Positions 1,665 to 16,381 of a DNA stretch of 16,567 nucleotides are shown here, piece after piece. The stretch's first letter is position 1; each line of letters starts with the position of its first letter. This DNA is from Verrucomicrobiales bacterium (lineage in GTDB: Bacteria; Verrucomicrobiota; Verrucomicrobiia; Verrucomicrobiales; SLCJ01): the NCBI GenBank assembly GCA_046075565.1, contig JBJTQJ010000129.1, positions 1 through 16,567 of the forward strand, written 5' to 3'. The position numbers and the translations under genes were made by a program. The notes below the pieces were generated by a model. It worked only from the letters and a program-made list of their open reading frames with translations, was not told where the DNA came from and ran no database searches.

Positions 1665-4600
1665 TCAAGGTCCCGTCACCCTGACATCGACAAACAGACG
1701 GGCGGGCAGCGTCCCGGTGACCGTGGCGGTGACACGGGTGAAGCCGGGGGCCGGGGTGTTCGCTTCGGTGGTGAAATTCACGGTGGTTCCGCCGCTGGTG
1801 GCACCGCCGAGGTGGAAGGTGGCAAGATCGGTCGACCAGCGGTAGCTCGCAGTAAGGCCGGCGGGAAGCGAGCCCTGCGGGTGGGTGAAGGTGAAGGTGC
1901 TGCCGTTCTTGATGCCGGCGGTGAGTCCCTGCGTGAAGGCAACGGGGTGGGTGCCGAAGAAACTTTCCACTCCGTTGTCGATGCCGTCGCCTTCGGGGTC
2001 GTCGGCGAGATCCCGGTCGGCCGGAGCGAGTCCGAAGGCGGGGTTGGAGATCCAGTCGGAGAAGGTGGGGAGGGCGGAGGTGAAGTTCCAGGCGGACGGA
2101 GCGGAAATGCCCGCGAAGGCATTTCCACCGGAGGTATCGATGACGGCGGTGGCATCGATGATGACACAATATCCCGTTTCGTAATCGAGGTTGGCGGTGG
2201 GATTGATGGTGAGCGTGGAGCCGCTGAAGGTGAGTCTGGTTGACGAGACCACGTCGAAGCTCTCGACGATGCTGTTGTCGGAGGTTTTCCTGAGGGTGAT
2301 TGTGCCGGTTCCCTTTACGACCGGCTCGCTGAAGGTGGCGACGAGATTGGCATCGACAAGTACACCGGTCGCATCGTCTGCGGGTGCCAGGGAGACAAGG
2401 GTCGGGGCGAAGTCGGTGGTGAAGTCCCATGCGGTGGCGCTGGAAATGCCTGCAAAGGCATTTCCAGCGGAGGTGTCGATGACTGAGGTGGAAGGGATCA
2501 GGGCATAGTAACCCGTTCCCGTAGCCAGATTGTTGGTTGGATCGATTGTCAGTGCCTGGCCGCTGAAGGTAAGTCTGGAGGATGTGGCCGCGTCGAAGCT
2601 CTCGACGATGCTGTTATCGGAGGTTTTCCTGAGGGTGATCGTGCCGGTTCCCTTTACAACCGGTTCGCTGAAGGTTGCGACGAGGTTGGCATCGACAAGC
2701 ACACCGGTCGCATTGTCTGCGGGTGCTAGGGAGACAAGGGTGGGGGCGAAGTCGGTGGTGAAGTTCCATGCGGTGGCGCTGGAAATGCCTGCGAAGGCAT
2801 GGCCGCCGGAGCTGTCAATGATCGCGGTGGAGGGGATCAGGGCATAATAACCCGTTCCCGTAGCCAGGTTGTTGGTTGGATCGATTGTCAGTGTCTGGCC
2901 GCTGAAGGTAAGCCTGGAGGATGTGGCCGCGTCGAAGCTCTCGAGGATGCTGTTGTCGGAGGTTTTCCTGAGGGTGATCGTGCCGGTTCCCTTTACGACC
3001 GGTTCGGTGAAGGTTGCGACAAGGTTGGCATTGACAAGCACACCGGTCGCATCGTCCGCCGGGCTGGTGGTGGTGATGACAGGTGCGGCAGCCGACGGCA
3101 CGAAGACGGCGAGGGCGTTGTTGTCGCCCGACGGGGCGCTGACCGTCCAAGTGTAATTGGCGGAGCCCGCTGTTGGCACAATCTGGTAGCCCGCGTTGCC
3201 CGCGGACGAACCCGAATCGCCGTTATGGAGGGTGCTGGCGAAGGGACCGGTGATCGAGGGTAAGTTGTTGGACGTGTAAACGCCGGTTACAAGGCTCCCA
3301 TTTACCGGGATGATCAAGTTGCCGGTAAGGCCAGTGGTGGTCGAGGTTCTCGCCACACCCCGGGCGGCGCCAGCCAAGCTCAGCACCCCGACGCGTGACT
3401 GGGTGGCCGCAGCAAAGGTCACGACGATGTTGCCAGAGCCCGTGGCTGGGTCGTCCAGGTAGAGGATCGCCGAATTTCTGCCGCCTGCGGAGTTGACCGC
3501 CACCGTGAAATTCTGAGTCCCTTTCCAAGTCGCGCTGATGCCCGGATTCGCGTTTTCCCAACTGGCGGTCAGCACCAGCTTGCGGTAGCTGCCGTCGGGC
3601 ACGGTGAAGTTGGAAATGGTGTTGGTGGTCGCGGTCGTGGACGTCTCATAGCGTTGGGTGTTGGCATTGTCTTCAAGCACGAGCCTGTCGAATTCAAGTG
3701 TGGGAGCGGCGATCGTGGCGTGTTCTTTCGATGCCACGATGGAGTTGCCGGATGCGGTGCTGGCTCTGGTGAGAATGAATGTCACCTTGTTGTCGGTATC
3801 CGCCAAAAGGAAGGAATCGAGGGCTGCGGACCGCAGCTCCAGAATGTTCCCCAAGGGCTGAGGTCCGGTGGCGGCAAGCGTGCCGAGTAGCGTCACCCGA
3901 CTGCTGGTGAGCCCATCTCCCGACGTTGTGGTGTTGGCCGGTGCGTTATTCCACGTGATGGTGCTCTCGCCCCAGGATTCCCCGGCGTCGGCATCTTTCA
4001 ATCCATAGACCTGCCATGGCGTCGTGTCATTCCATGCACTCTCGACCATGAACTGCAGGGAAGCGTTCGGCGTGGACTTAGGGTCATGCCCGGTAAGATC
4101 GAAGCGGATGTATGCCTTCCGATAATTGTCGGCGGTGGTGGCATTTTTGACGACGAGTTGCGTCGCAGTGCCGAAGTTGATCGCGGCACTGCTGCCTGCC
4201 CGAACATAGGCATCCGCGCTGGATTCCAGTGAGGCAATGCCGGAAAGCGCTTGCGGCGTGGCGCTCGCGACCGCGCTGTCCGGACTGGTGCCCTGGGCCG
4301 TGGTCATCGTGACCTTGTAGAAATACGGGGTGCCCTGCACCAAGTGCGAGTCCATCCAAGTCGTGCCGTTGACTCCCGCGGCGATGCTGGTGAACGGACC
4401 CGCCAGCGATGTTGCACGGAAGATACTATACGTTGCCGACGTGGTACCCCCCGTCCAGCCCTCCCAGGCCAGTGCGATTTTCGTGGCGGATGCCGCGTTC
4501 GCGGTCAGACTCTCGGGTGCGAGGGGACCGGCTTCTTGCCTGCCATAAACTTCCACGTAATCCACCTTGGCCGGAGTGCCGGAAACGGGTGTGACATCGA

Positions 4601-6716
4601 GCCGGATCTCTGCACCGGCTGGCAGAGTGACCGCACGTTTGATCCGGTGGCGGATTTGAAGGCCCGTGCCGGCCGGCGTCAGCTCCGCGCTCCACGAATC
4701 AACACTCGTTCCGTTCACGCGCAGCACGTAGCTGGCCGCAGCGCTGGACCCGGTGATATACGCGGCGTGGAGGTTGTAGGTTCCGGCCGCACCGGTAAAG
4801 GTGGTCGTGAGTCTCCCGTTCGCGCTGAAAGTGACTCCAGCATCATTGGAGTAGGCGGAGACTCCTGACTCGGCGGTTCCGGTGGTGATTGTCATGTTCT
4901 CGGCCTCGACCTTGGTCGGCATGACATAGTTCGACTTGCGGCCCGCATAATCGGTGATGGTCGTGTCTGCAGTGGTGACGTTGGAAATCAAACGGATGTT
5001 CTGCACGCCGCCGCTGGTATTCTGGTTGATGTCGTCGGAGCAATTCACATTGGCGTTGCGCTCGAAGGTGATGAATTCCGAGTAGTTGTCCGCATAGATC
5101 CCGGCCACCGGATAAGCACCCGTGAGTTGGGCCCACTGGATCGTGTCCGCCCAGTTGTCCACGATATGGGTTCCTTGTTGGCGGGCCAGCGTGTAAAACG
5201 CCGCGCCGTCGTCGTGGAACTGCATCACGTGATGCACGTAATTGTTTCTCAGGATGTTGTCCTTCATGCCCGCTTCCTCGTTGCCACCAGCCTGCCCGCC
5301 CGTCTGGGTGCCCATGTAGGGTCCGTAAGAGATTTCATTGTCCGCGATGAGCATGCGTTTCACGAAATAGCTGACGATGCCGACGCCGTTGCTGTATTGC
5401 TGGCCGAACCGGGAGATGCCGTTGTTGACGATGCGGATATTCTGGCACTCTTCACCTGCGGCCGGGCTTTGATCGCCATCCTCATGAATCACGATGCCGT
5501 TCCCGGAGAGCCAACGGAAATCGCAGTTGCGGATGGCTCCGCCCGTGACGCCCTTCACATAGGAAATGGCCGTGAAGCCTAGGAACCGGAACTTGCAGAA
5601 AGCAATATCCACATTCTCGGCATACTGCGCCGTGATCGCTCCATGCTTCGCAAAGGGTGAGATGAGTTCCCTGGCACCCTGGCTCATGGCGGAACCTTTG
5701 GTGCTAGGCCCGTTCCAGCCGGTTTGGGTGAAGGTCAGCCCTTCAAAGCGGACATTGCGCACCTTGCCGCTGGTGCTGGAGGATGTGCCGGAGATCTGGA
5801 TCAGCCTTTCCAGCTTTGGCGCCTCGATGGTGGCGGTGGGCATGTATTCACCCGTGCGCGGCTTGTAGTAAAGTGTCGAGCTGGCGGTATCATGGAACCA
5901 CTCGCCCTCGGCATCGAGAAAATCGATCGAGTTCTCGACGAAGTAAGGAACGGGATAAGTAAGGCTATCCCAGAAACTGTCGCCTTTGGCGAAAATCGAA
6001 CCGTTCTCAGGCGATTGGAATTTGAAACGGACCTGAGTCTCATTTTGATAGGAACCACCGTCTGCGGCAAGGCGGTCATCGACTCTCCCGCGGTATTGAT
6101 ACCAGTGCGGGTGCATGACCACTTCCACGTTGGAGAGGCCGGTGATACTTCTCCAACCTTCGACGTCCGGCCGATGGACAATCGCCTCTTTGGCCGCGGC
6201 GTCGATTCCGATCATGTTGAAATACGGGTCCGCAGCGTTTTGATTCGGCAATCTCGCCCTGATGGCAGAGGAGGCATTCACGGTGAGTTGCCGGAACGGG
6301 AAGTTGACCCCGGTTTTCTTATAGATGTTTTTCGTTGCATCATGAAGCACCCAGCCGCCCGAGAGATCCACGCCGCCGCTGATGACGGGGACCTCGCTGC
6401 CGTAATTCCGGTATACGACATTGAAGCCATTCGTTCCCGAATCACCCGGATCCAGCGTCAGCATCGCGGAAAGGCGGTGGATGCCTCCGCGGAGATGGAC
6501 GGTGATATCCTCCGTCATGCTGCCATTGATCGCATCCACCGCCGCGCGCGCTTTCTCCAAGGTCTTGAACGCGGTAGCGAGCGACGTGCCGTTGTTCGTA
6601 TCCTTTCCGGAAACGGGATCGACGTAGAAGTCCTCGGCGGAGGTCACGCTGCCCCCGCAAAACGCGAGCGCCAGCAGGCAACGCACGAGAACATGGATCC
6701 GGGAGGGCGGTTTCAT
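1665..6716 (-). CDS. Large secreted modular protein (~1683 aa): GH141-like right-handed beta-helix, CBM6/35-like module, FN3, DNRLRE/CBM96-like module, unassigned ~200-aa domain, three SbsA/Big_5-type Ig-like repeats, C-terminal DxxGDG-type domain
   Basis: Start placed at ATG 6716 (MKPPSRIHVLVRCLLALAFCGGSVTSA, signal peptide); the ORF extends to ATG 6770. Motifs: FYVDPVSGKDTNNGT...HLRGGIHRL...DSG...PVISGG and DDGAAFYTL...GIYADNYS (~4935-6635); KVEAENM...KVDYVEV (~4542-4913); PESLTA...LAW...YSIFR...YFYKVT (~4254-4526); ADAYVRAG...NFG...RKAYIRFDL...ITWNNAP...SKE (~3688-4229); repeats at 2070-3086. Confidence 0.85.
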   Translation of the reverse strand: MKPPSRIHVLVRCLLALAFCGGSVTSAEDFYVDPVSGKDTNNGTSLATAFKTLEKARAAVDAINGSMTEDITVHLRGGIHRLSAMLTLDPGDSGTNGFNVVYRNYGSEVPVISGGVDLSGGWVLHDATKNIYKKTGVNFPFRQLTVNASSAIRARLPNQNAADPYFNMIGIDAAAKEAIVHRPDVEGWRSITGLSNVEVVMHPHWYQYRGRVDDRLAADGGSYQNETQVRFKFQSPENGSIFAKGDSFWDSLTYPVPYFVENSIDFLDAEGEWFHDTASSTLYYKPRTGEYMPTATIEAPKLERLIQISGTSSSTSGKVRNVRFEGLTFTQTGWNGPSTKGSAMSQGARELISPFAKHGAITAQYAENVDIAFCKFRFLGFTAISYVKGVTGGAIRNCDFRWLSGNGIVIHEDGDQSPAAGEECQNIRIVNNGISRFGQQYSNGVGIVSYFVKRMLIADNEISYGPYMGTQTGGQAGGNEEAGMKDNILRNNYVHHVMQFHDDGAAFYTLARQQGTHIVDNWADTIQWAQLTGAYPVAGIYADNYSEFITFERNANVNCSDDINQNTSGGVQNIRLISNVTTADTTITDYAGRKSNYVMPTKVEAENMTITTGTAESGVSAYSNDAGVTFSANGRLTTTFTGAAGTYNLHAAYITGSSAAASYVLRVNGTSVDSWSAELTPAGTGLQIRHRIKRAVTLPAGAEIRLDVTPVSGTPAKVDYVEVYGRQEAGPLAPESLTANAASATKIALAWEGWTGGTTSATYSIFRATSLAGPFTSIAAGVNGTTWMDSHLVQGTPYFYKVTMTTAQGTSPDSAVASATPQALSGIASLESSADAYVRAGSSAAINFGTATQLVVKNATTADNYRKAYIRFDLTGHDPKSTPNASLQFMVESAWNDTTPWQVYGLKDADAGESWGESTITWNNAPANTTTSGDGLTSSRVTLLGTLAATGPQPLGNILELRSAALDSFLLADTDNKVTFILTRASTASGNSIVASKEHATIAAPTLEFDRLVLEDNANTQRYETSTTATTNTISNFTVPDGSYRKLVLTASWENANPGISATWKGTQNFTVAVNSAGGRNSAILYLDDPATGSGNIVVTFAAATQSRVGVLSLAGAARGVARTSTTTGLTGNLIIPVNGSLVTGVYTSNNLPSITGPFASTLHNGDSGSSAGNAGYQIVPTAGSANYTWTVSAPSGDNNALAVFVPSAAAPVITTTSPADDATGVLVNANLVATFTEPVVKGTGTITLRKTSDNSILESFDAATSSRLTFSGQTLTIDPTNNLATGTGYYALIPSTAIIDSSGGHAFAGISSATAWNFTTDFAPTLVSLAPADNATGVLVDANLVATFSEPVVKGTGTITLRKTSDNSIVESFDAATSSRLTFSGQALTIDPTNNLATGTGYYALIPSTSVIDTSAGNAFAGISSATAWDFTTDFAPTLVSLAPADDATGVLVDANLVATFSEPVVKGTGTITLRKTSDNSIVESFDVVSSTRLTFSGSTLTINPTANLDYETGYCVIIDATAVIDTSGGNAFAGISAPSAWNFTSALPTFSDWISNPAFGLAPADRDLADDPEGDGIDNGVESFFGTHPVAFTQGLTAGIKNGSTFTFTHPQGSLPAGLTASYRWSTDLATFHLGGATSGGTTVNFTTEANTPAPGFTRVTATVTGTLPARLFVDVRVTGP
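2070..3086 (-). repeat. Three tandem 339-nt (113-aa) intragenic repeats encoding Ig-like domains
   Basis: Units begin (minus strand) at 3086, 2747 and 2408. Each encodes AP...PAD.ATGVLV.ANLVATF.EPVVKGTGTITLRKTSDNSI.ESFD...AFAGIS...AW.FT. Long near-identical nucleotide runs such as CGGAGGTTTTCCTGAGGGTGAT recur at 339-nt spacing. Confidence 0.95.
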
Positions 6717-6899
6717 GGGTTGGGTTTGTCGGAAAATTGCGAATCGGGCCTGTCGCGGTCGGGCCTTCATGGGGAGGGGAGTTGGGTTTTCCAGCGGGGG
6801 AGGTCGCCTTTGCCTACGGTGTTGAACTTTGTTGACGATACGTGGGACGGGCGAGGCGTGGCGGGGAGATACTTCGGATGCGGGTGCTGCGGTTCATGG

Positions 6900-6938: not shown

Positions 6939-8234
6939 CTAAGGGTTTGGCCGGGGTGCCGCTGCGGTGGGCAAGGCGGCGATACCGTAAAGGATGGTGC
7001 CGGCACCGATGGATTCGGGCCGGGCGGCAGGGCCCAGCACCACCTCGCCACCTTCGGGCATGTCCCGGCGCCAGATATCAAACGAAACGGGCCTGTTCTC
7101 GCGGTGGGGTTCGATGCTGACCTTTCCAATCCGCTCGCCGGTGGGGACAAATCCCTCGACCAGCCAATGTGGCGCGGGCTGGTTTCGCCGCTGGAAGACA
7201 AAGAGCGAGGTGGAAGGCGCCACCGTCACGGTGACCCGAAGGTTCGCCCGATCGCGGTGGACGTGGGCCGGGAGCACCAGATCCGCTCCAAACAACCACG
7301 CGGGGATGGGGCGTTCGGACAGGCTCACCCAACGGGCATTCCGGTTGTGGTGGGCCGGCACCGACTCGACCAGACCGCCCGCGACAATGTGGTAAACCGA
7401 TTGGCCCTTTTGATTGTTGCGGACCGAGCGGATGAGGGAACTGCCGTCATCAAGCGCACCCGTGCTCCACTGCCCCGTATGGGGATTAAATCGGACCTGT
7501 TCGAGCTTGCCGATGGTTCCGGATGTGTTCACCACGACGCCCTCACCTTCGGCGAGACGGTTGACCCCGCCTCGTTTGGAGTGCAGTTCGACGCTGCCTT
7601 CGATGACCACGACGCCGGTCGAACCGGCGGCGGATGCGTCCACCCCGAAGCGGGTGCCGAGGTCAACCACCCGCGTCTGGGGCGCGTCCAGAATGAATCC
7701 CTTGCCCTGCGGGCCGACATCCACGGTCGCCTTTCCCGAATGGATCCGGACATGCATCGGGTTGATGAAATGCAGTTGAGCCGGTGCGAGCAGCTCGATC
7801 GACACGTCGTTGGCCAAACGCAACTCCAGCAATCCCTCTTCGATGGTGAGGTCCCGGACCCGGCTCCGGCTACCGGTTTCGGTTGCGATGCTGCCGTTTG
7901 AGACCTTGAGATCCCTCGCCGCGACAACTTCGACCTCGACGCCCCGGGTCATGTGGGTCCAGGTCGCGATCGAAATGGCGATGACGGCGGCGGCCGCGAG
8001 CCCCAGAATCCGGAGTTTTCCCCGACGCGCCCGCGCATCGATGAACTGGATGGAGTCTTCCACGGCGGAGCTGCCGCGCAGGGCGGCCCGGAGTTGCTCC
8101 TCGCGGACTCCTGTGATGACAAATTCCCTCAACAGCTCGGGATTACCATCAAGCAAGTCACGGAGTTCGCTGGACTCGCCGTCGTCCAAATCATTCTCGT
8201 AGTAGCGGGAGGTTAAATTCTCGAATCGGTTCAT
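6939..8234 (-). CDS. FecR-domain membrane anti-sigma factor (431 aa) with an additional C-terminal extracytoplasmic domain
   Basis: Start MNRFENLTSRYYENDLDDGESSELRDLL (helical anti-sigma-like N-terminus). The ATG overlaps the sigma stop (ATGA, 8231-8234) and has AAAGGAG upstream. One TM segment (ILGLAAAAVIAISIATW). FecR motifs LEL.LANDVSIELLAPA, GFILDAPQTRVVDLGTRFGV, VVVIEGSVEL. The upstream extension of the ORF to 8831 overlaps the sigma gene and is rejected. Confidence 0.9.
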   Translation of the reverse strand: MNRFENLTSRYYENDLDDGESSELRDLLDGNPELLREFVITGVREEQLRAALRGSSAVEDSIQFIDARARRGKLRILGLAAAAVIAISIATWTHMTRGVEVEVVAARDLKVSNGSIATETGSRSRVRDLTIEEGLLELRLANDVSIELLAPAQLHFINPMHVRIHSGKATVDVGPQGKGFILDAPQTRVVDLGTRFGVDASAAGSTGVVVIEGSVELHSKRGGVNRLAEGEGVVVNTSGTIGKLEQVRFNPHTGQWSTGALDDGSSLIRSVRNNQKGQSVYHIVAGGLVESVPAHHNRNARWVSLSERPIPAWLFGADLVLPAHVHRDRANLRVTVTVAPSTSLFVFQRRNQPAPHWLVEGFVPTGERIGKVSIEPHRENRPVSFDIWRRDMPEGGEVVLGPAARPESIGAGTILYGIAALPTAAAPRPNP

Positions 8235-8767
8235 GCGTGGCTCCTTTCCAACTGGATTTGGTTTTCGATGCACTTGCGCAACTCCTCGCGGATTCTCAGC
8301 AAGCCAACGCGGATGGCGACTTCGGTTGCGCCCAGCGCACGGGCGATCTCCCGTGAATCGAGCGAATCGTAGTAGCGCAGCCGGATCATCCGGCGCGCCT
8401 TGGGGGAGAGCTTGGTGAGGCAAACGTCGAGAGCCGCCCCCTCTTCCCGCTGGGCGGGAGCAACTTCGATAAACGTATTGGAGATGCGTTCCAGCAACGC
8501 CTCGTCGAAAACCAAACGTGATCTCGCGTAGTCCCTTTTGCTGCCCAGGATCGCGAATTTCGCGACCCCCATGGCCCAAGGAAGGAACGCTTTCGACGGG
8601 TCGTATTGGGCGAATTTGCGGAGCAACGTCATCGCGATTTCCTGCAGAAGGTCTTCCGCTTGCCCGCGGTCGCGGATGCTGGTGTGAACAAAGCACGCGA
8701 CCGTGGACTGCGACTGAGTCCATAGCTGGATAAAATTCTCCTGTTGGTCCGTGGTTAGCACCCCCAT
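8231..8767 (-). CDS. ECF sigma-70 factor (178 aa), resembling the Rhodopirellula/Verrucomicrobium family (TIGR02989-like)
   Basis: Region 2: FIQLWTQSQSTVACFVHTSIRDRGQAEDLLQEIAMTLLRKFAQYDPSKAFLPWAMGVAKF. Region 4: LDVCLTKLSPKARRMIRLRYYDSLDSREIARALGATEVAIRVGLLRIREELRKCIE. GGAG lies upstream of ATG 8767. Coupled to the FecR gene. Confidence 0.93.
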   Translation of the reverse strand: MGVLTTDQQENFIQLWTQSQSTVACFVHTSIRDRGQAEDLLQEIAMTLLRKFAQYDPSKAFLPWAMGVAKFAILGSKRDYARSRLVFDEALLERISNTFIEVAPAQREEGAALDVCLTKLSPKARRMIRLRYYDSLDSREIARALGATEVAIRVGLLRIREELRKCIENQIQLERSHA

Positions 8768-8975: not shown

Positions 8976-11915
8976 TCATGGTGTGGACAGGATGCGCACC
9001 GGACCGAGCAGGCCGGCGGGTTGCAGCGGGCTGTCCTTGGTGTAGTGGCGGTTGGTGGTGAAGGTGAACCGTCCGCCGGGTGCGCGTTGGGCTTTCCTGA
9101 ACCAATCCGGCCATTCGAGCAGGGTCTCGGGATTCTTCCATTTCGAGTCTAGGGGCAGGTGTTCGTCGCCGATCAGGCGGTTGTTCCAGGTGTTGGCAAC
9201 CTCGATTTCAAGGGCATTGGAACCGGGCCGAAGGGCTCCGGAGGCATCAACCTGATAGGGCGGCTTCCAGGCGATGCCGCAATCCTTGCCATTGAGTTTC
9301 ACACGGGCGACGACCTCGACCTGTCCGAGATCGAGGCGCAGGGGAATACGTCCGTCGGTGGGCACAGCATCGGACAGTTCGAAGGTGGTGCGATAGGTGG
9401 CGGTGCCGGAGTAATATCGAACTAGCGGGTCGGTGTGCTCGGACCAGGAGGCAAGCCGGTCAAGCTTGAGCGTTTCCTTGGTCCCCCATGCGGGATCGAA
9501 GCTCAGGGACCAGGCGCCATCGATGGGCTGGATGGGTTTCCATTCCGCGAAGGGGTTGTGGGTCGGGCGAGCGGCGCCGGGTTGATCGCGGAAGACGACA
9601 AACCAGCTTTGTGCGGGGCTGAAGCGCAGCTTCGCGCGCGTGCGACCGTCCGGATCGGGAGTGCTCGGCAGCGCGTGGATCTCGCCGGTTTCCGGGTTCC
9701 ACAGTTCGCCAGCTTTTCCGGTGCTGCGGAAGAGACATTCGCGTTCGACCGGCTCGGGCCGGGTATTGGCGACGAAGTAGATCTCGGTGTTCCCGGTTCG
9801 ACGGTGGAGCCATTTCAGTCCCTCGCCCTCGAAGTCCGGCGGGATCCGATCCGCCGTGAAGACTTCGTTCCATCCGCTCTTGGGCAGCAGGGGCCAGTTG
9901 GCGGCGAGTTTCTTCACTTCGTCGTTGGCCTGTGGGTAACCTTCGAGTCCCGGGGTGCCGGTGATCGGGGCCTGGAGGAAAATGGCGGCACCGGCTTCGC
10001 GTAGTTCCCCGATCTTGCGTGCGACCGGCAGCGTGAGGCGCCCGGAGCGCGGCAGGACGAGGTAGCGGTAGCTGATGCCGCTTGGCAGGTGGATGCGACC
10101 GTCGGCAAAAGTCAGACGCATGACGACTTCCTCCGAGCAAAAATCATGATCGTATCCGGTCAGGCGGTCAAATTGGATATCATTGAAGTTGAGCGGAGAA
10201 TCGCCATGGTAAAGGCAGGCGATATCGACGACGCGGCGGCCCTGCTGGAGCAGGAACTGGCAGCGGGCGACATAGTCGAACCACGGCTTGCTGAATTCCC
10301 ACCACGTCTGGTGGCGGTTGAAGTGCTGGCCCCAGCGGCTGTGCGTCAGGCCGGGCTTCATCGAATCGTAGGCCTGGTGGGCGGATAGATGGATGACAAA
10401 GTGGCTCACCCCCTCGCTAAAGGCCTCGTCGCCCATGCCTTTGATCAGATAGGGGTGGTCGATCCAGCCGCGGCAACCGGTGAAGGCCTCGGCTCCGACA
10501 CGTGCCTTGCCATGGGTATTGGCCACCGAGGCGAGTCCTTTCATCGAGTGATACCAGTAGGAGTGAAAGTCGGGAAAGCGGCCGTCGTATTTGCGATCCT
10601 TGAACTCCCGCTCGGTCCAGAACTCGGCGATGGGAAAATCACCGCGGCCGCCGTAGTCGAGGCTGTTCACACAGAGGCGACCGTAAGGTTCGGTGGAAAA
10701 TTTCACGCCGTAGGGTTCGATGCGCTGGCGCAGTCGGTCGATGTAGTTGGCCAGTGTCACCTCGCCGACCGTGCGGCGCAGGTCGCGGAGAAAGCGTTCG
10801 GTGAGATCGAGGCTGCCGACGGCATGGCCGGTGAGCACGGGCAGCCAGGGGGTGAGGTCGTAGCCCCGGCGCTTTTTGAATTCCCCGGCGAACCCGCTGG
10901 TCCAGTTCTGGCCGTGGGCCTCCCAACTGTCGATGTGGATGTATTGCAGCGTGCGCCCGGACTTCTCGCCGGCGGCATCGAGGATTGGCTTGAGGCGGTG
11001 CTCGAAATGCGCGTCGATACCGCGCGGATGGAGGCGGTCGCATTCGAGGCCGAGCACGCCGGAGGGCACGGGGCGGGTCGTCTTGAGGTTGGTGGCATGG
11101 CCGAGACGGACGACCGTCCATTCGCCCGGTGGAGCATTCCAACGCAAATGGCCATCGGTGTTCATCTTATCTGTTAGATCAACCACCCTGGCGGAGTGCA
11201 GCGGGATGATTTTGGATTTTCCGGCCAACGGTGGCGGGTCGGTCAACCAGCCCCGGCCGTCGTAGGTCTCAAGGGGATCTTCCTTGTGGTTCGATTCAAA
11301 AAGGCGGGAGCCATCCGCCTGCGCCGCCGGATAGGCAAAGACGCGGGCATCGCGGAACGAATCGGCCCGCTCGATGGCGGTGGCGACATCGGGAAGCATG
11401 CGTTCGTCGGGGTGCAACCAAACCGGTGGCGGCCTGGTCTCCACCACCGGTTGCGGCAGATTCGTCGTCACCGGTCCGCCACCCCGCACCTTGGTTTCCG
11501 ACCAAACCAGCTTCTGCATCGAGGTGTCCGGCGTGATGTGGGGTCCGCCGCTGCCATAGCCGAAATCCACGCTCAGTGTGAAGGCCAACCCGAGGCGGTC
11601 GGCCTCGGTGATGGCCCACTGCATACAATCATGCCATTCCTTGCTGTCCGCCTCGATCGGCCCTCGTGGAGCCCAACGCGGCCCGCTGACCTCCATCCAG
11701 ATCACCCCGCCGATGCCGACGTTTTTCATGGCCTCGAGGTCCTTGGTAATGCCCTCGCGACTGATGTTCCCGTTGATCCAGAACCAGAACACCCACGGCC
11801 GCGCCCCGGCGGGTGGTGACTTGAAAGAGGACTCCAAATCACCCGCTACCCGCGCGGGCAGGGCGAGGCAACAGGCCAACAAAATGGCCGCAGCATTGCG
11901 GAGGAGAAGGTTCAT
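8976..11915 (-). CDS. Secreted glycoside hydrolase family 106 (alpha-L-rhamnosidase-like) with a C-terminal beta-sandwich domain
   Basis: Signal peptide; F..PP..ARPWVFWFWINGNISREGITKDLEAMKNVGIGG, SMQKLVWSE, GLECDRL, HIDSWEAHGQNWT, RRGYDLTPWLP, AEAFT, WGQHFNRHQTWW, YVARCQFLLQQGR, RYYSGTATY, LDLGQV...VKLNG, LEIEVANTW.NRLIGD, GLLGPV. Confidence 0.9.
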   Translation of the reverse strand: MNLLLRNAAAILLACCLALPARVAGDLESSFKSPPAGARPWVFWFWINGNISREGITKDLEAMKNVGIGGVIWMEVSGPRWAPRGPIEADSKEWHDCMQWAITEADRLGLAFTLSVDFGYGSGGPHITPDTSMQKLVWSETKVRGGGPVTTNLPQPVVETRPPPVWLHPDERMLPDVATAIERADSFRDARVFAYPAAQADGSRLFESNHKEDPLETYDGRGWLTDPPPLAGKSKIIPLHSARVVDLTDKMNTDGHLRWNAPPGEWTVVRLGHATNLKTTRPVPSGVLGLECDRLHPRGIDAHFEHRLKPILDAAGEKSGRTLQYIHIDSWEAHGQNWTSGFAGEFKKRRGYDLTPWLPVLTGHAVGSLDLTERFLRDLRRTVGEVTLANYIDRLRQRIEPYGVKFSTEPYGRLCVNSLDYGGRGDFPIAEFWTEREFKDRKYDGRFPDFHSYWYHSMKGLASVANTHGKARVGAEAFTGCRGWIDHPYLIKGMGDEAFSEGVSHFVIHLSAHQAYDSMKPGLTHSRWGQHFNRHQTWWEFSKPWFDYVARCQFLLQQGRRVVDIACLYHGDSPLNFNDIQFDRLTGYDHDFCSEEVVMRLTFADGRIHLPSGISYRYLVLPRSGRLTLPVARKIGELREAGAAIFLQAPITGTPGLEGYPQANDEVKKLAANWPLLPKSGWNEVFTADRIPPDFEGEGLKWLHRRTGNTEIYFVANTRPEPVERECLFRSTGKAGELWNPETGEIHALPSTPDPDGRTRAKLRFSPAQSWFVVFRDQPGAARPTHNPFAEWKPIQPIDGAWSLSFDPAWGTKETLKLDRLASWSEHTDPLVRYYSGTATYRTTFELSDAVPTDGRIPLRLDLGQVEVVARVKLNGKDCGIAWKPPYQVDASGALRPGSNALEIEVANTWNNRLIGDEHLPLDSKWKNPETLLEWPDWFRKAQRAPGGRFTFTTNRHYTKDSPLQPAGLLGPVRILSTP

Positions 11916-11960
11916 GTTTGAAGGGAAGATCTAAACCAGGGATTTTCCACTCTGAAGCCT

Positions 11961-12965
11961 TTACCTTCCCAGGAACAAATCCCGGCCGGCGACCAGCGCC
12001 TCGATCTTGCGATCGGCCACCGAACGTTTCAGCATCCAGAACCCGCAGTCCGGGTGCACCCATTTGACCCGGCCGGGGCCGAGCGCCTTGACGGCGGCGT
12101 CGATGCGTGAGGCGACTTCGTCAGGGGTCTCGACGTGATTCACTTTGATATCGATCACGCCGATACCGATGGCGATGTGATTGCCGACTTGTTTGAGCGC
12201 CTCCAGATCGGAGGACGGGCGGTGGGCTAGTTCCAGCACGATGTGGTCGGTGTGCAGGCCATTGAGGAAATCGACGAGCGGTTTCCACGCGCCGGACTGG
12301 ATGGTCTGTCCGCCGTAGTTGCCGAAGCAGAAGTGGACGGCCTTTTCCACGGTCACCTTGTCGAGGATGCGGTTGATCGCGGCCTGAGCGAGCGGGGCAT
12401 GTTGTGGACTGCCGGGCACATTGGCCTCATCGACCTGGACACAGGCGCAGGGAAGATCCGCCACCTGCTCGGCCAGCGTGTCGGCGATGGCCATGGTCAG
12501 GGACTCGAGGTCGGGGTAATGGTGGTCGAGCAGGGTGCGGGCCAGCATGAACGGGCTGGTCAATGTGAATTTCATCGGGCCATTCGCCACCGAAGCGGAG
12601 CGCGCGCAGGCGTCGTAAAGATCGAGGGTGCCCTCGCTGATTGCATCGATCACCACGGCGGCGGGCTTGCGGCGGAAACTCATTTCCTGCTTCGCGCGGA
12701 AGGCGATCCCATCGCTGCGACCGACCTGCGAACGGATCCCGCCGAGCCGGCTGACGAAGTATTCGATCATGCCGTTGGTGTCGGGGTGGTTCGGATCGAA
12801 GCGGTAAAGTTCACCGTCGGTGGGTAGATCGATGCCGGCGTTCTTCTGGATGTTGATGACCACCGAGGTGGCGTCGATGACGGCCTGTTCGCTCGGCAGT
12901 GCGGCAAGCCAGTCGATGGGCGAATAGGAACCGACGGTGGTGGTTCGGATTTCGGGTGCGCTCAT
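11961..12965 (-). CDS. Stand-alone cobalamin-independent methionine synthase II family protein (single MetE C-terminal-type barrel, Zn thiol-alkyltransferase fold); substrate unknown
   Basis: TTTVGSY, Q..AGID..TDGE..R, CVQVDEAN, candidate Zn ligands HFC (12327-12335), LELAH and HPDCGF (Cys at 12045-12047), GVIDIK...VETPDEVA. About 334 aa, with no N-terminal MetE half. Start is ATG 12965 or ATG 12971. Confidence 0.88.
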   Translation of the reverse strand: MSAPEIRTTTVGSYSPIDWLAALPSEQAVIDATSVVINIQKNAGIDLPTDGELYRFDPNHPDTNGMIEYFVSRLGGIRSQVGRSDGIAFRAKQEMSFRRKPAAVVIDAISEGTLDLYDACARSASVANGPMKFTLTSPFMLARTLLDHHYPDLESLTMAIADTLAEQVADLPCACVQVDEANVPGSPQHAPLAQAAINRILDKVTVEKAVHFCFGNYGGQTIQSGAWKPLVDFLNGLHTDHIVLELAHRPSSDLEALKQVGNHIAIGIGVIDIKVNHVETPDEVASRIDAAVKALGPGRVKWVHPDCGFWMLKRSVADRKIEALVAGRDLFLGR

Positions 12966-12989
12966 GGGCATGGGATGGTGATTTGCGTT

Positions 12990-14132
12990 TTACGGGTTTA
13001 TTTTCCAATCGTGGACGGTCTTTGCGGAAAGCTCACGGAGTTTGTCTTCGTCCACTTCCAGGCCGAGGCCCGGGCCTTCGGGGATTTCCGCCACGGCATT
13101 GCGGATGACCACCGGCGAGCTGAGCACGGAAGCATCGAGAAACTGCGGGCCATTGAGCACGGCGGCTTCTTCCAACCCGTAGGCATCGTAGAGAGCCAGC
13201 GCGGCTCCGAGCGAGAGATCTGGATCGCAGAGCCCGCTGCCGACCCATTTGAGACCGTGCTCGATGCAGAGTTCGATCTGGCGTTTGTTCGAGGTCAGCC
13301 CGCCACAGCGGGCGGGTTTCATCGCCATGCCGTCGAGCATGCCGAGTTGGATGAACTCCTCCAATTCCACCGGGCTGATTACGCCCTCGTCCATGTAGAG
13401 CGGCAAGGCTCCTTGTTTCTTGAGCGCCTGATACCAACTGAGGCGATTCGGCGGCACCGGCGATTCGAAGACCTGCACACCCAGATCGGCGAGCTTTGGC
13501 GCGACCCAAAGCGCGTTGTCGAGATCGTAGGCCGTGTTGGCATCGGTCCAGAGAAAGCCATCCGGCGAGGCGTCGCGCACCATTTTCACCACTTCGAGAT
13601 CAAAGGCGGGATTCGGAGCCACCTTCACGTTGAAGTGCCGGTAGCCGAGGCGTTTGCCTTCGTTGACCGATGCCTCGACGCCATCGAGCGAAGTGACATT
13701 GACCGTCCAGCTCAGTTCGAGTTTACCCCGGCGAGGACGTCCCCAGATTTCGGCCAGCGACTGGTTGCGGGCTTTTCCGATCAGATCGTGGAGCGCCATG
13801 TCCACGGCGGCGCGGGTCAGCGGCATCCCGGTGGTAAAACCCGGACGGATCGCCTTGTCCATGATCGTATGGGCACCGGGGCTGTCCTCCGCGTCATGGC
13901 CCTTGAGAGCGGGTCCGTAGTAGTTACGCAGGGCGATGGTCGAAGTCTCCAGCGTCTCGTCACTCCAGGTCGAAATCGGCACCGCCTGGCCCCAGCCGAT
14001 CTTGCCGTCGTCGGTGGTGAGTTTGATTATCACCGCCGGCCGGCCCGAGGCACCGAGCGGGGTGGTGAAAAACTTGAAGTAGAGTTTGGTCGGGTATTCG
14101 AGGGGAAAGACCTCGATGGATTCGATTTTCAC
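12990..14132 (-). CDS. Enolase-superfamily enzyme (mandelate racemase/muconate lactonizing enzyme family, MLE-subgroup-like), cytoplasmic
   Basis: GTG start; N-terminal capping domain (VIIKLTTDDGKIGWGQ, AAVDMALHDLIGK...L..IWG); metal ligands TDAN, FESP, MDEG; KPARCGGL; C-terminal IPEGPGLGLEVDEDKL. The strand-2 motif is FNVKV. Confidence 0.92.
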   Translation of the reverse strand: MKIESIEVFPLEYPTKLYFKFFTTPLGASGRPAVIIKLTTDDGKIGWGQAVPISTWSDETLETSTIALRNYYGPALKGHDAEDSPGAHTIMDKAIRPGFTTGMPLTRAAVDMALHDLIGKARNQSLAEIWGRPRRGKLELSWTVNVTSLDGVEASVNEGKRLGYRHFNVKVAPNPAFDLEVVKMVRDASPDGFLWTDANTAYDLDNALWVAPKLADLGVQVFESPVPPNRLSWYQALKKQGALPLYMDEGVISPVELEEFIQLGMLDGMAMKPARCGGLTSNKRQIELCIEHGLKWVGSGLCDPDLSLGAALALYDAYGLEEAAVLNGPQFLDASVLSSPVVIRNAVAEIPEGPGLGLEVDEDKLRELSAKTVHDWKINP

Positions 14133-14144
14133 GTGATGGATTTG

Positions 14145-15476
14145 TTAGATGAATTTTTTCAAGTCCCAAGGTTCGCGGTAGGTTCCGGTCATGTGGGCGG
14201 CGGCCTCGGGGTGGTTGGTTATCTTTTCGGCGATGGGGTCCCAGGCGAGCGCTTTGCCTGCCTTGATGGCGGCGAGACCGAGCAGGCATTGGCTGTTCAC
14301 GCGGTGGCCGGCTTCGGCGTCGATCATGACTTTGCTCCCGCCGAGAATCGCCGCGATGAAATCCTCCTTGTCCTGCCGGGTCGGCACCCGCTGGTCCGTA
14401 TCCCGGAACTTGAGGCCCAAGAAATTCTTGTCACTGGCCTGGAGACCTCCCTTGCTGTGCCAGTTCGCTTGCAGCCAGCCCTCATCACCTTCGACACGCA
14501 GGTAGGGTTTGTCGATCTTGTAATCCAGTTTCACCCCGTTGGCATATTCGTAATGGACTTTGAAGGCGGTGATGGTGTCCCAGAGCGCCCCGGCTTCCGG
14601 GAAGGATCCAGTGCCCTCGATCTTCACCGGTCCGCTGTGGCTGGTGCCGTTGATGAAATTGGCCACGTCCATGAGATGGCCGCCCCAGTTGGTGATCATG
14701 CCGGCCGCGTAATCGGAAATACGCAACCAACCGGGTCGCCCGATGGGTGCGCCGGTCTGCGGGTCGGTGTTATGCACTCGATCCAGGGCATAAGGTTTTT
14801 CGGGCGCGGGGCCCTGCCACATTTCATAGTCGAGATGTGCGGGCACCGGCATCGGGGTTGGATTGCCGAATCCCTCGGTTAGCTCCTTCGGCACCCCGAC
14901 TTCAAAACGGCGGAGAGTTCCCAGATATCCGTTGAGCGCGAGGTCCGCGGTCTTGATCATGTAACCGCTCGAGCGGCATTCGCTATCGAGGCGGAAAACC
15001 AGACCGGATTTTTTTGCGAGGTCGGCCAGTGCCCGACCTTCCTCGAAGTGCAGGGTCATGGCCTTTTCGCAGCAGACATGCAATCCCTTCTTCAGGGCGA
15101 TCATCGACTGGATGGTATGCCAATGGTCCGGCGTGGAAATCATCACCGCGTCGAGGCCGGGCATGTCGTAGGCTTCGCGAAAATCCGTGAACAACCGGCA
15201 ATCCTGGGTGCCGTATTCGGCATCGACGAGTGATTTGGCGTGACCGGCGCGCAGACGATCCACGTCACACACCGCGACCACGCGCACATTCTTCTGGCTC
15301 AGAAACCCCCGCAGGTTCACTTGCACGCCCTGCCGGCCTGTGCCGATCATGGCAACGTTCACCCGCTTGGACGGCGTATCCTGCCCTCGCAACAGGCCCG
15401 ATGGCAGGATGGTGAAGGCCGAGCCTGCGGCAACTTGGCCGAGGAAACGGCGGCGATGCAAGGATTGCGGGTTCAT
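14145..15476 (-). CDS. Tat-exported Gfo/Idh/MocA-family NAD(P)-dependent oxidoreductase (443 aa)
   Basis: Start MNPQSLHRRRFLGQVAAGSAFTILPSG (twin-arginine signal); the ATG overlaps the upstream stop (ATGA, 15473-15476). Rossmann motif VAMIGTGRQG, VVAVCDVD, DAVMISTPDHWH, CEKA, LDYEMWQGPAP, GMITNWGGHLMD, L.WDP..E.I.N. Confidence 0.92.
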   Translation of the reverse strand: MNPQSLHRRRFLGQVAAGSAFTILPSGLLRGQDTPSKRVNVAMIGTGRQGVQVNLRGFLSQKNVRVVAVCDVDRLRAGHAKSLVDAEYGTQDCRLFTDFREAYDMPGLDAVMISTPDHWHTIQSMIALKKGLHVCCEKAMTLHFEEGRALADLAKKSGLVFRLDSECRSSGYMIKTADLALNGYLGTLRRFEVGVPKELTEGFGNPTPMPVPAHLDYEMWQGPAPEKPYALDRVHNTDPQTGAPIGRPGWLRISDYAAGMITNWGGHLMDVANFINGTSHSGPVKIEGTGSFPEAGALWDTITAFKVHYEYANGVKLDYKIDKPYLRVEGDEGWLQANWHSKGGLQASDKNFLGLKFRDTDQRVPTRQDKEDFIAAILGGSKVMIDAEAGHRVNSQCLLGLAAIKAGKALAWDPIAEKITNHPEAAAHMTGTYREPWDLKKFI

Positions 15477-16345
15477 TTCTTTTCCTGATTGGTTTGGTGG
15501 AAATTTCGCCAGGCACGCATCGAGATGGTGAGATGCTCGCGGGCGGGTCGTTTGATTTGATAACACTGCAAATTGACGGGGCCACGGTAGCCGATTTCAT
15601 CGAGACAGCGGATCACCCTGCCGACATCGAGTGTTCCTTCACCGAGCGGTTGGATCAAGCGGGTCCAATCCGGTTTCCCGGGAGGCACGACATCGCAACC
15701 GCTGATCTGCACGCACTTCAATCGCGGGCCAAATGAGCGGAGGCTTGCCTCGATTTCCTTTTCGTCGTTCATTGCAAGGAAATGGCAGAGTGTGAAACTC
15801 AACCCGAGGTTTTTCCTGTCCGCAAGGTCGGCGAGTCGCGCGCATTTCTCCAAGGTGTCGGTGCAACATCCCACATGGGGATAAAGTGCGACCTCGAGCC
15901 CCGCTTCCGCCGAGAGGTCGCAAATTTCGCGGAGCAACCGGACCGCCGTTTCGTCATCCGCCTTGGGGTTCGACAGACCCAGCCAGATCAATGTTCCGCG
16001 TCCTTTGAGTTTCCCGATATGCGCGGCAATTTCCGCAGGCACGGTTTCGCCTTCTTTCGCGGCAAGGACGACGTAACTCGCGATGATTTTGACTCTGGCT
16101 TGGTCCATCGCGTCCAGCCATTCCGTGGTGGCATTTGCCGGTCGGGTGCAAATCCCATCGTAGCCGAGTTCGTTGAGAAGCGCGGCTTGTTCCGCGGGGG
16201 ATTTGATATCGGTCAATCCGTTATCAAAGACGAAGAAAGGGCGCGGTGCCGGCGGAGAAGGGTCAGCGGAGACAGACGTGGTCGCCGCGAGGGCGAGGAT
16301 TCCCATGAGCAAACCCGGGAGTCGTAAGAGAAGTGTGGTGATCAC
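15473..16345 (-). CDS. Exported sugar-phosphate isomerase/epimerase-like (xylose isomerase/AP endonuclease 2) TIM-barrel protein
   Basis: Hydrophobic signal peptide ending VSA-D; LLNELGYDGI, LYPHVG, NLGLSFTLCHFL, IQPLGEGTLDV...L.EIGYRGPVNLQCY. Start is GTG 16345 (in-frame TAA shortly upstream) or ATG 16306. Confidence 0.8.
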   Translation of the reverse strand: MITTLLLRLPGLLMGILALAATTSVSADPSPPAPRPFFVFDNGLTDIKSPAEQAALLNELGYDGICTRPANATTEWLDAMDQARVKIIASYVVLAAKEGETVPAEIAAHIGKLKGRGTLIWLGLSNPKADDETAVRLLREICDLSAEAGLEVALYPHVGCCTDTLEKCARLADLADRKNLGLSFTLCHFLAMNDEKEIEASLRSFGPRLKCVQISGCDVVPPGKPDWTRLIQPLGEGTLDVGRVIRCLDEIGYRGPVNLQCYQIKRPAREHLTISMRAWRNFHQTNQEKK

Positions 16346-16353
16346 GACATCAC

Positions 16354-16381
16354 ATTATGAAAAGAGACTCCTCGAGGACAA
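16354..16381 (-). promoter_or_regulatory. Possible sigma70-type promoter for the TIM/oxidoreductase/enolase/MetE-like/GH106 operon
   Basis: Minus strand TTGTCC-N16-CATAAT, ending 8 nt before GTG 16345. A perfect palindrome TCCTCGAGGA (16369-16378) overlaps the -35 box and spacer. Motif match only. Confidence 0.35.

Follow-up and report, generated by a model that had tools for sequence, protein, structure and literature searches.

The DNA studied here is a whole contig of 16,567 bp (JBJTQJ010000129.1, our C129), called the window, from the 3.9-Mb, 129-contig genome of a Verrucomicrobiales bacterium (GCA_046075565.1). On its minus strand it carries a run of five genes, which encode a TIM barrel protein, a Gfo/Idh/MocA oxidoreductase (Gfo), an enolase-superfamily enzyme, a short MetE-like zinc enzyme and a GH106 alpha-L-rhamnosidase. 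An earlier note on this DNA had proposed that the five products form one catabolic pathway for a modified deoxysugar. Our analysis suggests a lineage-specific mosaic operon in a sigma/anti-sigma-controlled glycan locus of a freshwater, Akkermansiaceae-like Verrucomicrobium, and not a conserved five-step pathway; we place about half of our confidence in this reading. We found the complete five-gene set confined to the window's own lineage.

Conservation of the five-gene set

The survey was based on a scan of one genome per species, in which at least 580 loci proved to encode proteins related to the MetE-like one; from these we retained the 80 best. The window proteins were compared with these 80 loci by tblastn (E <= 1e-10). 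Genes at the loci were called with a home-made GC-frame caller, which recovered 8 of the 9 window genes, the sigma factor gene being masked by an over-long anti-sigma open reading frame. At 69 of the 80 loci the caller detected the MetE-like gene itself, and 242 neighbours lay within two genes of it, of which 236 were taken through Pfam labelling, many without a Pfam hit. Distribution counts refer to a sample of 201 genomes of the phylum, and the enolase clade was scored as present in a genome at E <= 1e-60.

An enolase gene was adjacent to the MetE-like gene in one of the 80 loci. This locus (L001) comes from an Akkermansiaceae metagenome-assembled genome whose MetE-like protein is 95% identical to that of the window, and its gene order is Gfo, enolase, major facilitator superfamily (MFS) transporter, URO-D-like and MetE-like, with no GH106 gene and no TIM barrel gene beside Gfo. 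In L001, the closest public relative, the enolase match (4563-5674) is split into two overlapping pieces in different frames, as in a frameshifted pseudogene or an assembly error. Among the 80 loci, Gfo was matched in 9 and the TIM barrel in none, and GH106 gave one weak match of 153 residues (L030). A metagenome scan from the enolase side gave eight loci, and in one of them (L088) an enolase gene (78% identical) is followed by a MetE-like gene (81%). Three complete genomes of another family (G060, G117 and G156) hold both genes, on different contigs or megabases apart. The enolase clade was present in 8 of the 50 genomes reached through MetE-like loci, compared with 6 of 201 in the phylum sample, so that there is some enrichment of the two genes at the genome level but no obligate coupling. 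The five genes did not hold together as one conserved pathway. The earlier note had named a lack of synteny elsewhere as grounds against its proposal, and the orthologs are in large part not syntenic in other genomes.

Within the window, the order and spacing described for the five co-oriented genes were confirmed. The TIM barrel gene is the first of the operon (15473-16345, minus strand; 290 aa, xylose isomerase-like, PF01261), and the contig sequence ends shortly upstream of it. The ATG of the Gfo gene (14145-15476, minus strand; 443 aa, PF01408 and PF19051) overlaps the TIM stop by 4 nt as ATGA, and a gap of 12 nt separates the Gfo gene from the enolase gene (12990-14132, minus strand; 380 aa, PF02746 and PF13378). 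The MetE-like gene (11961-12971, minus strand; 336 aa, PF01717 of the Meth_synt_2 type, 71 bits) begins 18 nt further on, or 24 nt when its second Met is taken as the start, and the GH106 gene (8976-11915, minus strand; 979 aa) follows after 45 nt, a gap in which no terminator was found. It is suggested by this arrangement that the five genes probably form one operon within a glycan-utilisation locus. Export was predicted from N-terminus reading and a hydropathy scan. The split proposed earlier, in which the TIM barrel, Gfo and GH106 proteins carry leaders and the enolase and MetE-like proteins have none, agreed with our prediction, and the latter two are predicted to be cytoplasmic.

The enolase, the Gfo oxidoreductase and the TIM barrel

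In other genomes, the enolase travels with a Gfo oxidoreductase. Over 13 loci with at least 5 kb of context, a Gfo gene was found within three genes of the enolase gene in ten (the window, L001, L086, L090, L091, L102, L104, L105, L106 and L107) and in no such position in L088, L089 and L103. The 3.9-Mb genome holds about 40 Gfo matches and 19 TIM matches, and at about 40 Gfo matches per 3.9 Mb this adjacency is well above background. A Pfam-confirmed TIM barrel lies beside the enolase in the window, L086, L105 and L106, and the glycosidase adjoining the enolase is GH38 in L090, L091 and L106. The TIM barrels near the enolase relatives are 22-28% identical to the window TIM over about 130 residues, which indicates that they are not orthologs. 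Twin-arginine leaders were read on 6 of 10 enolase relatives (L086, L089, L091, L102, L103 and L104). To our knowledge, periplasmic export of an enolase-superfamily enzyme has rarely been described. Taken together, the conserved unit appears to be the enolase clade with a Gfo oxidoreductase, often with a TIM barrel and usually in one predicted compartment, and we regard this unit as genuine.

A second enolase copy is encoded on contig C31 of the same genome (L102, 6894-12265). It is 52% identical to the window enolase, carries a twin-arginine translocation (Tat) signal and comes directly after a Gfo gene whose product also has a Tat signal and shares 37% identity with the window Gfo; an amidohydrolase gene comes next, and a DUF1080 gene is oriented the other way. 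Judging from these signals, both members of the Gfo-enolase pair of L102 would be periplasmic. Among the Gfo matches of the genome, those on contig C4 include two mirror-image pairs, 12291-12659(-)/69850-70218(+) and 23966-24343(-)/58166-58543(+), with identical scores within each pair and coordinates that sum to 82509, which looks like a palindromic assembly artefact.

The best PDB match of the window enolase is chloromuconate cycloisomerase (1nu5, 3.9e-36), and racemases, epimerases, galactarolactone cycloisomerase (4ggb) and 3,6-anhydro-L-galactonate cycloisomerase (5xd9) rank lower. The protein falls under every NCBIfam cutoff, the muconate/chloromuconate cycloisomerase model TIGR02534 giving 136.9 bits compared with the 334.95 required. 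N168-x-K170, D197, E223, D248 and K272 are invariant in 11/11 members of the clade, which are 45-100% identical. D197, E223, D248, K170 and K272 align to the metal ligands and lysines of 1nu5, which places the protein in the muconate-lactonizing enzyme (MLE) subgroup. The window clade has in common with 1nu5, 4ggb and 5xd9 the Asp/Glu/Asp metal ligands and the Lys on strands 2 and 6; however, it has N-x-K in place of K-x-K, the first Lys being replaced by Asn, and its partners are Gfo oxidoreductases and glycosidases rather than aromatic-catabolism genes.

The best NCBIfam match of the Gfo protein is the glycoside 3-dehydrogenase family BT_2158_fam (111.5 bits, 3.9e-32), and its top PDB matches are 8tdf and 8tdh, followed by the C-glycoside 3-dehydrogenase DgpA. 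A twin-arginine-like motif, HRRRFLG, at residues 7-13 predicts export, as in a periplasmic 3-dehydrogenase with a tightly bound cofactor. The TIM barrel has a leader ending VSA/D and matched PF01261 at 64.4 bits; its best PDB match is IolI (1i60, 4.4e-7), and in NCBIfam it stays at the superfamily level, with QuiC at 0.007 as the sole match. A recent preprint (bioRxiv 10.1101/2024.03.25.586180) reports a periplasmic pathway in which a Gfo enzyme is accompanied by a "sugar phosphate isomerase" that is a 3-keto-beta-glucoside 1,2-lyase and by a DUF1080 lyase/hydratase. The window Gfo resembles this Bacteroides and Alistipes system (BT2156-2160, AL1-AL4) in its BT_2158_fam assignment and in its 8tdf and 8tdh matches. 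On the other hand, the window has no DUF1080 partner, its Gfo is far under the family cutoff, its TIM barrel is similar at the superfamily level only, and it adds an enolase and a MetE-like gene, which are foreign to the described system. By analogy, it is plausible that the Gfo/TIM pair of the window works like the periplasmic 3-keto-glycoside system.

The MetE-like protein

The MetE-like protein fell under all NCBIfam methionine-synthase cutoffs, including PRK04326 (145.8 compared with 406 bits) and MetE TIGR01371 (46.5 compared with 929.95 bits), and at 336 aa it is not a two-barrel MetE of about 750 aa. Its nearest structure is 3rpd (MesD, 2.9e-13), and its ESM Atlas matches were solely clusters of the "methionine synthase II family". 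The zinc and homocysteine residues were mapped through HMMER alignments to 3rpd and 4ztx, together with the residue list in Price et al. 2021 (PMC7857596). Each of S15, E54, D181, H213, C215, E247 and C309 is shared by 69-70 of the 70 family members, so that, by homology to 3RPD and MetE, the four zinc ligands and the three homocysteine-binding residues are intact in the clade. The protein has the residues of a core methionine synthase but not the family score, and the obligate partner (MesX for MesD) was not found. These findings are in line with the earlier suggestion that this zinc enzyme is a thiol methyl- or alkyltransferase.

Members of the clade are 66-96% identical across Verrucomicrobiota, Acidobacteriota, Planctomycetota, Rhodothermota and Lentisphaerota, and the distribution is patchy, with orthologs in 7 of the 201 phylum genomes. 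A quick tree was mostly taxonomic; the Rhodothermota sequences were nested in a Verrucomicrobial set with 99% support, and a Blastopirellula sequence was sister to a Verrucomicrobiales sequence. The window protein resembles MesA-MesD of Price et al. 2021 (PMC7857596) in its single Meth_synt_2 barrel of about 340 aa, its co-occurrence with MetH, its His/Cys/Glu/Cys zinc ligands and its Ser/Glu/Asp homocysteine contacts. It differs in being below all cutoffs, and neither MesX nor a corrinoid protein nor a Meth_synt_1 partner could be found; moreover, the neighbours of the MetE-like genes are AraC, Rieske, MtaA-like, Gfo and TIM genes and not Wood-Ljungdahl or MesX genes. Literature searches, supplementary files apart, found no description of this clade or of the five-gene set. 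The MetE fusion (PMC10861871) and MtgC/MtgD (PMC12478193) have other architectures.

The neighbours of the MetE-like gene were counted within two genes in the 69 loci. A carbohydrate-type gene (Gfo, TIM, sulfatase, glycoside hydrolase, polysaccharide lyase or carbohydrate esterase) was found in 24 of them, and no methionine-biosynthesis gene was seen at this distance. Gfo was present in 11/69, a TIM barrel in 3/69, an SSF symporter in 3/69, and a PL22-like beta-propeller in 7/69, all from Acidobacteria. A Rieske plus VanA_C monooxygenase gene lay immediately upstream of the MetE-like gene in nine loci (L004, L006, L007, L011, L046, L050, L056, L061 and L069), its best NCBIfam match being the methylsterol monooxygenase SdmA (82 bits). 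A divergent AraC gene adjoins the Rieske gene in at least four of these loci (L006, L007, L046 and L069), and Gfo or TIM follows within two genes in L056, L061 and L069; AraC regulators were counted in 7/69 loci altogether, several of them beside Rieske genes. In three Verrucomicrobial loci, a URO-D family gene (L001 7024-8004, L005 828-1817 and L009 7033-7992) overlaps the MetE-like start by 4 nt. Its best relatives are MtaA/CmuA methyltransferases (PDB 4ay7, 8.5e-13; TIGR01463, 80 bits compared with a cutoff of 235); the His of the H-x-C zinc motif is missing, and no gene for a corrinoid protein was seen in the vicinity. A tblastn search of the window's genome at 1e-8 gave no MtaA-like, Rieske or propeller partner.

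A second MetE-like paralog, MetE2, is encoded on contig C95 of the same genome (L094, 3592-19266). It is 28% identical to the first and has the same zinc and homocysteine residues. Its cluster reads DUF6807-TIM-Gfo, followed further on by SDR-ROK-SIS-MetE2-MBL-Gfo-Gfo, with divergent sulfatase, GH78, DUF1080 and SASA genes. In other genomes, MetE2-MBL is conserved in G066, and SDR, SIS, MetE2, MBL, Gfo and Gfo in G165.

These data bear on whether the MetE-like protein is a B12-independent back-up methionine synthase of the folate-independent core type, riding in an ordinary glycan module, which we consider rather unlikely. The homocysteine and zinc residues are kept as in MesD and MetE, the conservation of 66-96% between phyla is very high, and many neighbours of the MetE-like genes are housekeeping genes. 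The genome of the window encodes MetH (1407 bits) and no full-length MetE, and the same was found in the five other ortholog-holding genomes that were checked (6/6). Price et al. 2021 (PMC7857596) report that MesD co-occurs with MetH in 75% of cases, a pattern like the one seen here. However, MetE is present in only 21 of the 201 phylum genomes, so its absence from the genomes with the MetE-like gene is uninformative. Furthermore, both paralogs of this genome lie in carbohydrate-type clusters, the AraC-linked operons resemble inducible catabolism, and the score is below every curated methionine-synthase cutoff.

In Rfam searches, neither the window nor any of 21 MetE-like loci showed an S-adenosylmethionine (SAM) or cobalamin riboswitch, while cobalamin riboswitches were found upstream of canonical metE in 2 of 10 phylum genomes used as a control (L117 157-310 and L122 503-613). 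The earlier note had counted regulation by methionine starvation only as grounds against its proposal, and no sign of methionine-type regulation was seen. MesX (PF08908) had no match in the genome, a search in which the control genomes gave none either, so that it has no positive control, and Meth_synt_1 had no match above the cutoff. This lack of riboswitch, MesX and Meth_synt_1 evidence leans to an inducible, accessory role of the MetE-like protein.

The glycan locus and its possible substrates

The window carries nine credible genes, all on the minus strand and unambiguous in Pfam or NCBIfam at the family level. GH106 matched PF17132 at 548 bits, compared with a cutoff of 29, over positions 1-739 of the 743 of the model, and its PDB matches were 6q2f (3.3e-134) and 5mqm (3.8e-129); from these matches, it is a predicted GH106 enzyme at the family level. 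Downstream lies a GH141-like gene (1665-6770, minus strand; 1701 aa; PF21231, PF24517 and PF13205), whose product best matched 5mqp (BT_1002) at 3.7e-44 over residues 43-367. The GH141 insertion domain PF21231 scored 45.6 bits compared with a cutoff of 27, and the similarity to the founder together with this domain assigns the predicted protein to GH141. It also contains three Big_5 repeats (about 1240-1570), each some 100 residues long and nearly identical to the others, a CBM96/DNRLRE domain and an fn3-like stretch. The last gene (167-1621, minus strand; 484 aa) encodes an S1 formylglycine sulfatase, with the PF00884 domain (163.9 bits) and the C-x-P-x-R motif as CSPSR. Both proteins have hydrophobic leaders and are predicted to be exported.

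The earlier note placed the GH141-like enzyme and the sulfatase directly after the operon. Both are present, but a sigma/anti-sigma pair that it left unmentioned intervenes. The extracytoplasmic function (ECF) sigma factor (8231-8767, minus strand; 178 aa from the likely ATG) lies 208 nt from GH106 and belongs to the Rhodopirellula/Verrucomicrobium ECF family (TIGR02989, 133.8 bits, above the cutoff of 124.55). The start of the FecR-type anti-sigma gene (6939-8234, minus strand; 431 aa; PF04773, 35.8 bits) overlaps the sigma stop by 4 nt, and its product has a single hydrophobic segment near residues 72-95. The pair probably controls the locus. A weak sigma-70-like promoter match (16354-16381, minus strand; TTGTCC-16-CATAAT) lies just upstream of the TIM start and is not above chance; the promoter scan gave 2 sites compared with 3.8 expected in shuffled sequences, and the promoter and terminator counts were at or below the shuffle expectation.

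It had also been stated that canonical rhamnose and fucose catabolic genes are missing from the window. This is true, but L-rhamnose isomerase RhaA is encoded on contig C79 of the same genome (643 bits), and four RhaM mutarotase matches were found elsewhere in it. Since RhaA is encoded elsewhere, free rhamnose needs none of the four genes upstream of GH106, and it is more likely that these four handle the attachment partner of rhamnose or a modified sugar.

We therefore describe the mosaic operon, as we favour it, in the following tentative way. The exported GH106, GH141-like and sulfatase proteins would trim a rhamnose-containing sulfated glycan, and free rhamnose would enter the RhaA route. 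The Tat-exported Gfo and the exported TIM barrel may oxidise a glycoside at C3 and then cleave it by 1,2-elimination, as in the known periplasmic pair, the target being a residue or linkage resistant to ordinary glycosidases. The MLE-type enolase would abstract the alpha-proton of a carboxylate derived from a sugar (uronate, aldonate or lactone), and beta-elimination or cycloisomerisation would follow; this step may be tied to that of Gfo, because Gfo is the conserved partner of the enolase in other genomes. In the MetE-like protein, a zinc-activated homocysteine-type thiol would accept a methyl or other alkyl group from some donor, as an accessory module recruited in this lineage only.

Several observations weigh against this reading. 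The Gfo protein is below the BT_2158_fam equivalog cutoff (111.5 compared with 750 bits). The TIM barrel, in its matches to IolI and PF01261, has superfamily similarity and nothing specific to the characterised 3-keto-glycoside lyases, whose sequences themselves were not compared. In the window, Gfo and TIM are predicted to be exported while the enolase stays inside and the operon has no transporter; elsewhere, the partners tend to share one compartment. Housekeeping genes (EngA, CysS, ALAD and histidinol dehydrogenase) are common neighbours at the MetE-like loci, so that a biosynthetic role fits as well as a catabolic one. The counts themselves come from a home-made caller and from the 80 best loci out of at least 580, and the genomes are related rather than independent: L090 and L091 are near-duplicates, and L105-L107 come from one family. 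The four sequencing runs listed as containing this DNA are all DNA runs from one freshwater study, with no RNA run among them.

The pathway of the earlier note, in its full form, would be dedicated to an O-methyl-deoxysugar: GH106 would release the sugar, Gfo, TIM and the enolase would activate it, and the MetE-like enzyme would move the methyl group non-oxidatively to homocysteine or another thiol. The intact zinc-thiolate and homocysteine site fits such a role, as does the result of the riboswitch search in the 21 loci and the window. Methyl-handling partners occur elsewhere, namely Rieske/VanA_C in 9/69 loci, often with AraC, and the MtaA-like protein in 3/69 with its 4-nt overlap, and both MetE-like paralogs of the genome lie beside rhamnosidase genes (GH106 and GH78). 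In addition, the GH106 and GH141-like proteins have their best structural matches in BT_0986 and BT_1002 of Bacteroides thetaiotaomicron, which we take to be enzymes of rhamnogalacturonan II (RG-II) degradation. RG-II contains methyl-ether sugars. However, the gene set is not syntenic elsewhere, GH106 is unlinked to the other genes in other genomes, and neither the MtaA-like nor the Rieske partner was found in this genome. The pathway would also need attack of a zinc thiolate on an alkyl methyl ether. We know of no precedent for a zinc thiolate taking a methyl group from an alkyl ether, and the sugar O-demethylations known to us are oxidative. The enolase alone could free methanol from a 3-O-methyl aldonate, so that a methyl acceptor would not be needed; beta-elimination of the 3-O-substituent of an aldonate by the enolase would be a simpler route to the same end, and an equally hypothetical one. 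For these reasons, we regard the dedicated pathway as improbable.

We think it very improbable that the substrate of the enolase and the MetE-like protein is not a carbohydrate but a nitrogen compound, for example a betaine, an Amadori-type compound or an N-substituted amino acid. The comparison is with hydroxyproline-betaine catabolism, which uses an enolase-superfamily epimerase and Rieske demethylases. The MLE relatives include N-succinyl-amino-acid racemases, dipeptide epimerases and HpbD-like proteins (2pmq and 4h2h, about 1e-20), the MetE-like site is predicted to bind an alpha-amino acid, the Rieske partners resemble the methyl-oxidising monooxygenases SdmA and GbcA, and SIS and ROK in the paralog cluster could fit a sugar-amine route, but the conserved partners of the enolase clade are Gfo, TIM, GH38 and GH106 and not amino-acid genes, the enolase showed no closer similarity to HpbD than to other MLE enzymes, and it is present in only 8 of the 50 MetE-like genomes.

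Another system with related genes is that for rhizopine. Rhizopine demethylation reportedly (Bahar and colleagues, 1998) requires a Gfo-family dehydrogenase, an accessory protein and a ferredoxin/Rieske-type oxygenase acting on an O-methylated cyclitol. The likeness to our data is in the Rieske, Gfo and TIM genes among the neighbours of the MetE-like family elsewhere. The genes for catabolism of rhizopine (3-O-methyl-scyllo-inosamine) are mocABC and mocDEF (PMC10107442). Unlike the window, the moc cluster contains neither a MetE-like nor an enolase gene, and the window has no Rieske gene.

A broader proposal, which we offer as a speculation and think improbable, is that the MetE-like clade is a fifth folate-independent homocysteine methyltransferase family with a catabolic role. 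Its members would obtain methyl groups by a non-oxidative route, either directly from methylated carbohydrates or cyclitols or after these have been processed by Gfo or the enolase; here the enzyme would act with Gfo, TIM and the enolase in removing methyl substituents from a rhamnose-rich sulfated glycan, and the methyl groups would go straight to methionine.

As for the meaning of these results, we advise against carrying the five-gene "pathway" forward as a conserved system. Two things stand regardless of which reading is right. The first is an uncharacterised and sharply delimited MetE-like clade, which has at least 580 loci in at least five phyla and an intact active site, and the second is an enolase-superfamily clade, mostly predicted to be Tat-exported, that travels with Gfo oxidoreductases; the MetE-like clade and the Gfo-enolase clade are concrete targets for enzyme discovery. 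Should sugars or cyclitols prove to be the methyl donors of the MetE-like clade, this would be the first O-demethylation in aerobes that needs neither oxidation nor a corrinoid, and in B12-dependent freshwater Verrucomicrobia it would tie the methionine supply directly to glycan breakdown.

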